Below are positions 55,962 to 56,656 of a stretch of DNA of 64,000 nt, in pieces. Location of the stretch: the NCBI RefSeq assembly GCF_000027125.1, contig NC_017626.1. One strand, given 5' to 3'. Within the stretch, counting starts at the first letter, position 1, and each line of letters begins with the position of its first letter. Position numbers and translations under genes: made by a program. The DNA comes from Escherichia coli 042 (GTDB taxonomy: Bacteria; Pseudomonadota; Gammaproteobacteria; Enterobacterales; Enterobacteriaceae). The notes below the pieces were generated by a model, which was not told the DNA's origin, ran no database searches, and was given only the letters and a program-made list of their open reading frames with translations.

Positions 55962-56494
55962 ATTAATCTGACCATCATTTTCTATAAGACGGCATATTTA
56001 ATCGCATTATACGATATGGGTTATTTTTCTTTTGTAAATTGTTCAACCCCGTGCAATGGCTATTTTGTTATTATTTCATGAATAATATCAGTGCGTCATA
56101 ATTCAAGTTAATCACCTTAAGGGATATTAGTTATATTTAAACTGAATTAAAGTAATGAATAATTTTCTTATAATATAAGGTAAATTAACAAAATGGCTTC
56201 GCATTTAACAATAACCGAAGAGAAAACAACCATTTCGATATCAACAATCGCTTACATTCGCTTATATATTGACCAGAACTGATACATCAGATTATGCGAT
56301 GATTCGTGCTTAGATCAATTTTTGCAATCATTAGCCAAAAGATTAATAAACCATCTATATCAATTTATCTAACCTATTCTTCCGTTCAAGAAATCGCCGA
56401 ACAGTTATTTTTAACAAATTTTTCTCTTCCCATTGACTTTCCCGGACACCTTGTCTGACCTAAGGTGCGCGAAAGCCACTTTTTCCTTCCTGAG

Positions 56495-56515
56495 TTATCC
56501 ACAAAGTTATGCACT
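56495..56515 (+). promoter_or_regulatory. DnaA boxes upstream of nrdA
   Basis: Perfect TTATCCACA at 56495..56503 and near-match TTATGCACT at 56507..56515. Confidence 0.55.
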
Positions 56516-56533
56516 TGCAAGAGGGCCATTTTC

Positions 56534-56579
56534 ACACTATCTTGCAGTGAATCCCAAACATACCCCCTATATATAGTGT
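56534..56579 (+). promoter_or_regulatory. Two NrdR-box-like palindromes in nrdA promoter
   Basis: acactatcttgcagtg and cccctatatatagtgt, imperfect 16-bp palindromes about 30 bp apart, roughly 80-120 bp upstream of nrdA ATG. Confidence 0.5.
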
Positions 56580-56656
56580 TCTAAGCAGCTTCCCTCACTA
56601 CAGGTAGTCTGCATGAAACTATTGCGGAAAGAATTCCAAAAACAGGTACGACATAC

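Follow-up and report, generated by a model that had tools for sequence, protein, structure and literature searches.

The contents of the spacer between yfaL and nrdA are already described for E. coli: an nrdAB control region, with sites for textbook regulators of dNTP supply, and a catalogued promoter island. In K-12, the nrdA start site is located at 2342780, giving a 107-nt leader, with the flank ...CACTATCTTGCAGTGA (Kim et al. 2012, supplement file 2). The sequence gTTATCCACAaagTTATGCACTt is DnaA-bound in K-12 ChIP-seq at 14x control, and a double box is listed for nrdA (PMC11317965 Table 1). For HusR (YnfL), a 2026 study provides a ypaB/nrdA peak at K-12 2,342,734 (about position 56504 in our numbering) together with two box sequences (PMC12844172 Table 1). 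According to reviews, Fis and IciA activate nrdAB and H-NS represses it, the latter being reported also in the study that revised the NrdR operator (Rozman Grinberg et al. 2025, PMC12176259).

On the yfaL side, promoter island 2342143_534, yfaL(-)/ypaB(-) (K-12 2342143-2342676; Panyukov & Ozoline 2013), is H-NS-bound in all ChIP studies compared (PMC3661553 Table 1), and RpoD genomic SELEX lists a promoter TTGATC-16-CATAAT with an H-NS flag (PMC3946193). The evolution of yfaL has been described as mosaic. Phages P1 and P7 carry an 'nrdA-like promoter' with a dnaA box (GenBank M95666; NC_005856 note).

Two-part composition of the spacer

Here, we analyzed a 64,000-nt stretch of E. coli 042 (contig NC_017626.1; hereafter the window), the species being recognized by sequence identity and gene order. 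An earlier note on this DNA, made from the letters alone, had rightly placed a divergent yfaL/nrdA region here, and its bounds for the 695-bp spacer are exact, with yfaL (-) and nrdA (+) flanking it (Table 1). Anatomy, composition, conservation pattern and phyletic distribution were obtained in the present analysis; protein binding and start site are all from the literature, and were determined on K-12 sequence that is identical or near-identical.

Table 1. Features of the yfaL/nrdA spacer and flanking genes, in window positions.
Feature	Position	Strand	Details
yfaL ORF	52221-55961	-	
yfaL/nrdA spacer	55962-56656		695 bp
AT-rich, hypervariable, yfaL-linked DNA	55962-56382	.	GC minimum, promoter-like sites, promoter island location
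Predicted yfaL sigma-70 promoter	56291-56318	-	-35 TTGATC 56318-56313, 16-bp spacer, -10 CATAAT 56296-56291; consensus scan
nrdAB control region	56383-56656	+	Sole spacer part homologous to the ubiG-nrdA spacer of other Enterobacterales
ypaB ORF	56386-56529	-	47 codons, RefSeq-annotated; overlies nrdA promoter
HusR (YnfL) box	56442-56457	.	CCGGACACCTTGTCTG; sequence from PMC12844172 Table 1
Second HusR box	56477-56492		CACTTTTTCCTTCCTG; sequence from PMC12844172 Table 1
Double DnaA box	56495-56515	+	TTATCCACA-AAG-TTATGCACT; motif match, K-12 ChIP-seq on identical sequence
nrdA sigma-70 promoter	56515-56550	+	-35 TTGCAA 56515-56520, 17-bp spacer, -10 TATCTT 56538-56543
NrdR box 0	56532-56547	.	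TCACACTATCTTGCAG; overlaps -10; 6 mismatches, position 6 is C, not A
nrdA leader	56550-56656	+	107 nt; conserved ACAGGTA Shine-Dalgarno region at about 56642-56648
NrdR box 1	56564-56579	.	CCCCTATATATAGTGT; 2 mismatches to consensus
NrdR box 2	56595-56610	.	TCACTACAGGTAGTCT; 5 mismatches; C4, A6, G13 present
nrdA	56657-58942	+	
nrdB	59176-60306		

The spacer is very probably a composite of an nrdAB control region and an AT-rich, yfaL-linked stretch that have different histories. With 28.8% GC, positions 55962-56385 form the lowest 424-bp stretch of the window, which is 51.6% GC overall. The earlier note had described some 500 bp of very AT-rich DNA; such a part exists, but it measures about 421 bp (55962-56382), and the next 109 bp (56386-56494) are 43% GC. 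Comparison with the K-12 nrdAB promoter/operator, which is colinear with the window without a single indel over the whole spacer, divides the region in the same manner: 24 of the 27 differences fall in the AT-rich part, leaving three substitutions in the 274-bp control region (0/112, 1/55 and 2/107 in three sub-blocks). ST131 differs at 65 aligned columns of the AT-rich part, which is 6-15% divergent within E. coli, barely alignable to the haplotypes of E. albertii and of locus L004, and without homologous DNA in species that lack yfaL. On the other hand, the control region is nearly invariant among E. coli strains, and homology to the yfaL-less species begins at CGTTCAAGAAATC (position 56383). 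The gene itself breaks the otherwise conserved order of gyrA, ubiG and nrdA at just four of the 79 loci examined (L004, L005, L011 and L035); about 75 of the 79 Enterobacterales species have no yfaL in the ubiG-nrdA spacer, and neither have Salmonella and Klebsiella.

A different reading would make the AT-rich stretch mainly a long-range module of nrdA, serving H-NS or Fis nucleation rather than yfaL. Repression of nrdAB by H-NS is indeed reported, H-NS filaments spread, and the block adjoins the nrdA control region. However, relatives without this DNA control nrdA from a spacer of 340-630 bp, and the block is hypervariable next to the nearly invariant 274 bp proximal to nrdA and co-varies with the yfaL allele. 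We thus consider this role unlikely as the principal one, although it is compatible with the composite reading, in which the stretch belongs to yfaL. The strict split into two units is nonetheless a simplification, as H-NS represses nrdAB too and the AT-rich part may feed nrdA control.

Downstream, a record 100% identical to the window (CFSAN018748) has nrdB pseudogene fragments between nrdA and nrdB, which proved a false lead for the window; the gap here is a normal 233-bp spacer with REP repeats.

Promoter and regulator sites of the nrdAB control region

K-12 and the window agree letter for letter in the two HusR boxes, the double DnaA box, the -35 and -10, the context of the start site, and NrdR boxes 0 and 1; a single C/T change falls in the -35/-10 spacer. 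Going by this identity, the protein binding and start site reported for K-12 would also apply to E. coli 042. The K-12 start site maps to the A at position 56550, where RNA polymerase is expected to initiate from TTGCAA-17-TATCTT. ST131/B2 strains are missing 13 bp of the leader (56625-56637).

Just upstream, the perfect DnaA box proposed by the earlier note is present (56495-56503, +), and so is the second one at 56507-56515, in the same orientation; the gap is however 3 bp (AAG) and not 4, within the 2-3 bp that define a double box. A single DnaA box is weak evidence, and a lone perfect box does not show regulation: the window contains three perfect boxes, the other two of which have no counterpart in the published list of DnaA-bound regions, and its 16 sites with at most one mismatch compare to 12.2 +/- 3.7 expected. 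The exact 21-bp double box, i.e. the sequence bound in K-12, occurs once, with a chance that we estimate at about 1.5e-5 per window. DnaA may bind it cooperatively, directly upstream of and touching the -35, which would link the transcription of nrdAB with DnaA-ATP and the replication cycle.

For NrdR, the 16-bp consensus acaCwAtATaTwGtgt was employed, with C4 and G13 as key positions and a 15-16-bp linker for paired boxes. Box 1 is the sole 16-mer within three mismatches in the 64 kb and is conserved across virtually all of the 79 loci from Enterobacterales. The window has 156 sites that match as poorly as box 0 and 29 that match as poorly as box 2; accordingly, these two count solely through their distance from box 1, which is 31-32 bp. 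From the mismatch frequencies of the window, a match as good as box 2 would arise at +31 or +32 with a probability of about 4e-4. The linkers are 16 bp between boxes 0 and 1, and 15 bp between boxes 1 and 2.

Two 16-bp NrdR-like palindromes about three helical turns apart had been proposed, acactatcttgcagtg at 56534-56549 and cccctatatatagtgt at 56564-56579. Both strings are there, and the second one is box 1. The first is however not palindromic, with none of its eight position pairs complementary and, as read from the sequence, only CACT...AGTG within a 15-mer symmetric; in that register it has eight mismatches to the consensus and no G13, and it does not qualify as an NrdR box. The proposed register yields 30 bp start to start, and the published one (box 0) 32 bp.

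Taken as a working operator, this pair equals box 0 with box 1, and box 2 had been overlooked. Repression through box 0, lying over the -10 and start site, together with box 1 three helical turns away is a 2005-2007 prediction, now superseded (Rozman Grinberg et al. 2025, PMC12176259). The 32-bp spacing is correct and box 0 retains C4 and G13, and in Salmonella-type promoters its equivalent is a far better match (ACTCACCATATAGCGT, 4 mismatches), with published data demonstrating that mutation of either Salmonella box raises nrdAB expression. For the K-12 allele, however, the KD of dATP+ATP-dependent NrdR binding to box 0 with box 1 is above 6000 nM, as compared to 113 nM for box 1 with box 2. 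Box 1 is required for binding, and earlier gel shifts were unaffected by mutation of box 0 (PMC12176259). Box 0 carries a C at the critical position 6, and its change to A (C6A) restores affinity tenfold. The conservation of box 0 is accounted for by the -10 hexamer within it. It is therefore very improbable that NrdR acts through boxes 0 and 1 in E. coli. Box 0 is weak or vestigial for NrdR, perhaps a relic over the -10, and the working operator of E. coli 042 would be box 1 with the downstream box 2. Box 2 is GTACTACAGGTAGTCT in K-12, starting with GT, whereas that of the window starts with TC, one step nearer to the consensus, a form present also in ST131, E. albertii and locus L011. Motif annotation of E. 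coli should adopt the revised operator, box 1 with box 2.

Promoter island, yfaL promoter and ypaB

The earlier note regarded the AT-rich remainder as unexplained, yet it is covered by the published promoter island, the yfaL promoter from RpoD SELEX and the HusR boxes (PMC3661553, PMC3946193, PMC12844172), the two HusR strings being unchanged in the window. Of the three guesses offered for its content, nucleoid-protein sites find support, since the remainder maps to the H-NS-bound island 2342143_534 (PMC3661553), and a yfaL promoter likewise, as a predicted promoter recovered by RpoD genomic SELEX with an H-NS flag (PMC3946193). The third, a small transcript, was left unsupported by the Rfam, terminator and fold tests.

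The island occupies the same place in the window (about 55913-56446), and both alleles are AT-rich, dense in promoter-like sites and located beside a gene flagged as foreign, with the K-12 allele differing at 24 aligned columns across 55962-56382. Seven of the 48 promoter-like sites of the window lie in the 424 bp, a 22-fold excess over the window-wide 0.75 per kb and a density within the top 0.2% of windows. Relative to composition-matched shuffles the excess is modest (7 vs 3.2 +/- 1.8, about two-fold), so that AT-richness by itself explains much of the island signal. A scan of the AT-rich part for the published H-NS 10-mer motif TCGATAAATT recovered no more than two weak matches, and the TSS table of Kim 2012 has no entry for a yfaL start site. 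We propose that this DNA travels with yfaL, a laterally acquired autotransporter (adhesin) gene, that overlapping promoter-like sites are packed in it, the likely yfaL promoter (56318-56291, -) among them, and that a coat of H-NS keeps yfaL largely silent, the DNA itself probably having no product of its own.

Should the 420 bp encode a small RNA or small protein, the many promoter-like sites on both strands could serve it; oligonucleotides of 9-14 nt are moreover reported from promoter islands, and a 'ypaB' RNA is seen by RT-qPCR (PMC12844172). Nevertheless, Rfam gave no match at E up to 1 (scan of 55000-57500), the terminator scan found no terminator-like site, and there is no ORF of at least 30 codons within 55962-56305. 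A putative 335-nt yfaL leader folds no more stably than shuffled sequences do (z = 0.23), and the nrdA leader has no fold signal either (z = -0.03), so that neither a small regulatory RNA nor a structured leader is indicated. Divergence of 6-15% in E. coli, and a second haplotype to which the stretch is unalignable, are unlike a conserved RNA. Within the spacer, the Kim 2012 table holds the nrdA start site only, its sole 'ypaB' entry starting inside nrdA. Altogether, we give an encoded product hardly any credence, and retain the reading of the stretch as DNA without one.

RefSeq annotates the ypaB ORF, divergent from nrdA, in the majority of E. coli genomes. The frame is uninterrupted in the window, K-12, L004 and L011, and its RNA signal rises in a HusR-dependent manner by RT-qPCR (PMC12844172), as might be anticipated for a genuine protein-coding gene. 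Against this, the ORF is broken in lineages that keep the DNA: E. albertii carries a stop codon within it, and ST131/B2 genomes, which have no ypaB annotation, show CTG in place of the ATG. Most between-lineage changes, as read from aligned translations, alter the protein, and YpaB has no NCBIfam match. The DNA beneath it is constrained by the DnaA, HusR and -35 sites, and the effects of ypaB CRISPRi are accounted for by block of the nrdA promoter. A genuine gene is thus very doubtful; ypaB is probably not a conserved protein gene and should not be handled as one. The HusR-dependent 'ypaB' RNA implies some transcription across the region, which is not assigned in the two-unit model (PMC12844172).

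nrdA promoter layouts and phage-plasmid copies

Survey of the 79 Enterobacterales loci and Salmonella, the promoter sequence of the latter being taken from a chromosome fragment filed under a wrong label in the plasmid collection, revealed two discrete nrdA promoter layouts. In type U, the -10 lies inside box 0, and a perfect DnaA box precedes NrdR box 1 by 69-79 bp; the first DnaA 9-mer is invariant in 12 of 12 aligned type U sequences, and the nrdA -35 and -10 are kept across the species, which belong to Yersinia, Serratia, Rahnella, Hafnia, Edwardsiella, Dickeya, Brenneria and Leminorella. The other layout, type D, has a separate -10 (TAGAAT) and a good box 0, and its DnaA boxes directly adjoin box 1 on the side that is transcribed; it occurs in Salmonella, Citrobacter, Klebsiella, Enterobacter, Kluyvera, Kosakonia, Pantoea, Erwinia and others.

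Common to type D and the window are the distal block ...AAGAAATC...TTGAC..., a -35 at the same position, boxes 0 and 1 spaced by 32 bp, a box 1 that is almost identical, and the Shine-Dalgarno region. Unlike the window, type D has an extra 6 bp with the separate -10 and good box 0, a perfect TTATCCACA that begins immediately behind box 1 and is followed 30 bp later by an inverted copy, and neither the upstream double box nor box 2. If the layouts really differ in kind, how DnaA and NrdR interact at this essential operon would have to be studied separately in Salmonella and Klebsiella.

E. coli, E. albertii and one Pseudocitrobacter MAG are type U, though within a type-D family. The 5' end of their nrdA coding sequence is normally close to Citrobacter (92-93%), and the far-upstream block of the Escherichia control region is Enterobacteriaceae-like. 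This combination suggests lateral replacement of the core promoter, and we tentatively raise, as a possibility rather than the expected outcome, that it happened in the Escherichia ancestor, beside the yfaL insertion, and that promoters are exchanged recurrently between phage-plasmids and chromosomes. If true, DnaA and NrdR control as known from E. coli would not be transferable to Salmonella or Klebsiella.

P1-like phage-plasmids carry a copy of the nrdA promoter in the layout of their host clade: type U in those of E. coli and some of Salmonella and Shigella, type D in those of Citrobacter, Klebsiella, Enterobacter and Kosakonia. Both layouts, as well as the copies on plasmids, were observed directly, and the host-matched layouts hint at recurrent phage-plasmid/chromosome exchange at the nrdA promoter, which, if true, would be a neat case of promoter-level mosaicism. 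The P1/P7 element is 95% identical to the window over about 130 bp (56404-56533), sharing the AT tract, TTGAC block, HusR-box region, double DnaA box and -35; similarity stops in the -35/-10 spacer, and the element is without NrdR boxes. It is positioned between hot/upfO and pmgV on the phage-plasmid and directed away from the annotated genes, and of two small ORFs downstream of the plasmid promoter, one has a marginal PHROGs match (E = 0.055).

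Organization of the yfaL/nrdA spacer

The earlier note described the spacer between yfaL and nrdA (55962-56656) as AT-rich DNA holding DnaA boxes and an NrdR palindrome pair. This observation is real, with small corrections, and the limits it gave are exact, as judged from the flanking ORFs. The regulatory sites and the AT-rich island are already known; only the difference in nrdA promoter layout and the plasmid copies may be new. Several complete E. coli genomes match the 695-bp query at 100% identity, and 5425 of 5426 E. coli assemblies contain it. In alignments, 24 of the 27 differences from K-12, and 65 differences from an ST131 strain, fall within 55962-56382, which is barely alignable to the second haplotype (L004, E. 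albertii); the nrdA-proximal 274 bp are almost invariant within E. coli. The spacer of ST131/B2-type strains is just 89.6% identical to that of the window, and their nrdA leader carries a 13-bp deletion (CGGAAAGAATTCC, window 56625-56637). Downstream, the nrdA-nrdB spacer (58951-59128) contains two tandem REP/BIME-like repeat pairs, and the otherwise identical CFSAN018748 record has extra nrdB pseudogene fragments that the window lacks.

Features of the spacer and its surroundings (window coordinates unless a compared locus, L, is named)
Feature	Position	Strand	Remark
yfaL ORF	52221-55961	minus	flanks spacer
ypaB, 47-codon ORF	56386-56529	minus	RefSeq annotation
HusR (YnfL) boxes	56442-56457, 56477-56492		reported January 2026; both sequences unchanged in window
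Perfect DnaA box	56495-56503		TTATCCACA
nrdA -35	56515-56520	plus	TTGCAA; fits mapped start site
NrdR box 0	56532-56547		TCACACTATCTTGCAG
nrdA -10	56538-56543	plus	TATCTT; fits mapped start site
NrdR box 1	56564-56579		cccctatatatagtgt
NrdR box 2	56595-56610		TCACTACAGGTAGTCT; sequence match, NrdR affinity known for K-12 allele alone
nrdA ORF	56657-58942	plus	flanks spacer
Copies of ~130 bp upstream of nrdA	L002:4000-4140; L084:1261-1316; L085:1561-1616

The nrdA control region

Kim et al. 2012 place the nrdA start site of K-12 107 nt ahead of the ATG, which corresponds to the A at 56550. In this promoter the -35 is touched by the second DnaA box and the -10 lies under box 0; boxes 1 and 2 occupy +15 to +61. 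According to reviews, nrdAB is activated by Fis, IciA and DnaA and repressed by H-NS and NrdR.

The DnaA interpretation of the earlier note is right. Its perfect box is present, as is the second, TTATGCACT, at a gap of 3 bp rather than the proposed 4 bp. Perfect copies of TTATCCACA number three in the window, so that a single box is weak evidence, and sites with at most one mismatch are not enriched there (16 against 12.2 +/- 3.7 expected). As an exact 21-bp string, the double box occurs just once in the window, and the same sequence, letter for letter, is DnaA-bound upstream of K-12 nrdA, 14-fold over control, in a ChIP-seq study (PMC11317965). The other two perfect copies are located just upstream of eco (16433-16441) and inside an alpha-2-macroglobulin-family gene (43230-43238), loci absent among the DnaA-bound regions quoted from that K-12 study.

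The proposed NrdR pair is half right. Box 1 stands alone in the 64 kb as a 16-mer with at most three mismatches to the NrdR consensus. The other 16-mer (56534-56549) is not a true palindrome and has eight mismatches in that register; the published register (PMC12176259), named box 0 by Rozman Grinberg et al. 2025 (PMC12176259), has six. E. coli NrdR binds box 0 plus box 1 with a KD above 6000 nM, as opposed to 113 nM for box 1 plus the new box 2, 15 bp downstream, and mutation of box 0 was without effect in earlier gel shifts (PMC12176259). A 2026 preprint attributes the failure of box 0 to C at position 6, with C to A giving a tenfold gain of affinity. The note therefore identified one real box, box 1, but gave it its historical partner and missed the functional one, box 2. 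The first two letters of box 2 (56595-56596) are TC in the window, ST131, E. albertii and locus L011, but GT in K-12, the only allele with a measured affinity.

The DnaA boxes and the nrdA -35 underlie the ypaB ORF, which is interrupted by a stop codon in E. albertii and has lost its ATG in ST131/B2-type strains through a T-to-G change (56527-56529), ST131 being without the RefSeq annotation. A family search with YpaB gave no match. RT-qPCR has reportedly detected a HusR-dependent ypaB signal, and Kim et al. 2012 assign to it, with a 640-nt leader and TAGAAT as -10, a weak antisense start site inside nrdA (4 reads, K-12 2343399), corresponding to about window 57169 on the minus strand. We regard ypaB as an annotation riding on conserved regulatory DNA.

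An H-NS-bound promoter island linked to yfaL

The DNA at 55962-56385 is, at 28.8% GC, the lowest 424-bp stretch of the 51.6% GC window, the remaining spacer having 42%. The AT-rich part harbors 7 of the window's 48 sigma-70-like sites, an excess of only about twofold over composition-matched shuffles. Considered unexplained in the earlier note, this DNA is already known as a promoter island bound by H-NS and linked to yfaL, an acquired gene. The island, '2342143_534 yfaL/ypaB', mapping to about 55913-56446, was flagged as associated with foreign genes and is H-NS-bound in every ChIP data set compared (PMC3661553). In an RpoD genomic SELEX study, TTGATC-16-CATAAT is listed as a promoter on the yfaL side and flagged for H-NS, and our scan predicts a promoter with the same hexamers at 56318-56291 on the minus strand. 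yfaL is reportedly regulated by GadE and GadX, and its evolution has been described as mosaic. The small transcript also envisaged finds no sign in the spacer: there is no Rfam match and no terminator, and fold energies equal those of shuffles.

Among the 80 Enterobacterales nrdA loci fetched, the genes usually follow one another as gyrA-ubiG-nrdA, and the ubiG-nrdA spacer measures 340-630 bp. In this set, yfaL occupies that spacer only in the E. coli-labelled representative, E. albertii, a Pseudocitrobacter MAG and Enterobacteriaceae bacterium RIT691, being absent from it in Klebsiella and Salmonella too; homology to yfaL-less species starts at CGTTCAAGAAATC, window 56383. The RIT691 gene (L035:2300-3000) is yfaL-like, 56% identical, and its upstream DNA appears GC-rich by eye in the alignment. 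Together with the Salmonella-type nrdA promoter of this locus, this suggests a separate insertion at the same spot.

Two nrdA promoter layouts and their mobile copies

Motif positions in 79 usable loci (window 56495-56610 against L006-L083 and L089) fall into two discrete layouts. Type U has its perfect DnaA box upstream, at 69-79 bp from box 1, and a TTGCAA-17-TATCTT promoter whose -10 is overlaid by box 0; some 31-32 bp beyond box 1 comes a conserved ACACTA half-site or full box. Its members are Yersinia, Serratia, Rahnella, Chimaeribacter, Hafnia, Edwardsiella, Enterobacillus, Dickeya, Brenneria, Leminorella and Limnobaculum. In type D, the promoter has six extra bases with a separate -10 (TAGAAT), box 0 is a good match (ACTCACCATATAGCGT), the upstream double DnaA box is absent, and box 1 runs directly into TTATCCACA, which recurs in inverted orientation 30 bp downstream. 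This layout is found in Citrobacter, Enterobacter, Klebsiella, Kluyvera, Kosakonia, Salmonella and others of the Enterobacteriaceae, and beyond that family in Pantoea, Erwinia, Mixta and Tatumella. We found no description of this difference in the literature searched, to which access was limited.

Within a mostly type-D family, E. coli, E. albertii and the Pseudocitrobacter MAG have the type-U layout, and they differ from other type-U species by a 10-bp deletion that creates the second DnaA box. E. coli nrdA shares 92-93% identity with Citrobacter over its first 150 bp; the E. coli control region reaches only 64-68% identity to type-D relatives, versus 68-73% to more distant type-U species. 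In the far-upstream block, AAGAAATC, it has the Enterobacteriaceae form. Lateral replacement of the core promoter in the Escherichia ancestor is the simplest reading, although the type-U layout there may instead be a retained old state. RIT691 combines its yfaL-like gene with a type-D promoter; thus, yfaL insertion and promoter change are separable events.

A segment of about 130 bp (56404-56533) that takes in the double DnaA box and the -35 has counterparts of 78-95% identity in phages P1, P7 and SJ46 and on 318 PLSDB plasmids from E. coli, Salmonella and Shigella, which are phage-plasmids of the P1/P7 family. GenBank M95666 already labels this segment an 'nrdA-like promoter' with 'dnaA box'; the P1 genome record, where the annotated genes beside it are on the other strand, also notes it. 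Non-mobilizable plasmids of Citrobacter, Klebsiella, Enterobacter and Kosakonia (85-260 kb; mostly about 85-114 kb, some near 260 kb) instead carry a type-D copy, not described in the literature searched. The plasmid copy thus tracks the promoter type of the host clade. On one such plasmid, pRHBSTW-00697_3 of Citrobacter freundii (L088:3001-3218), the copy extends over -35, -10, both NrdR boxes (0 and 1) and the first DnaA box; a phd antitoxin gene lies 1.7 kb away, as it does near the P1 copy.
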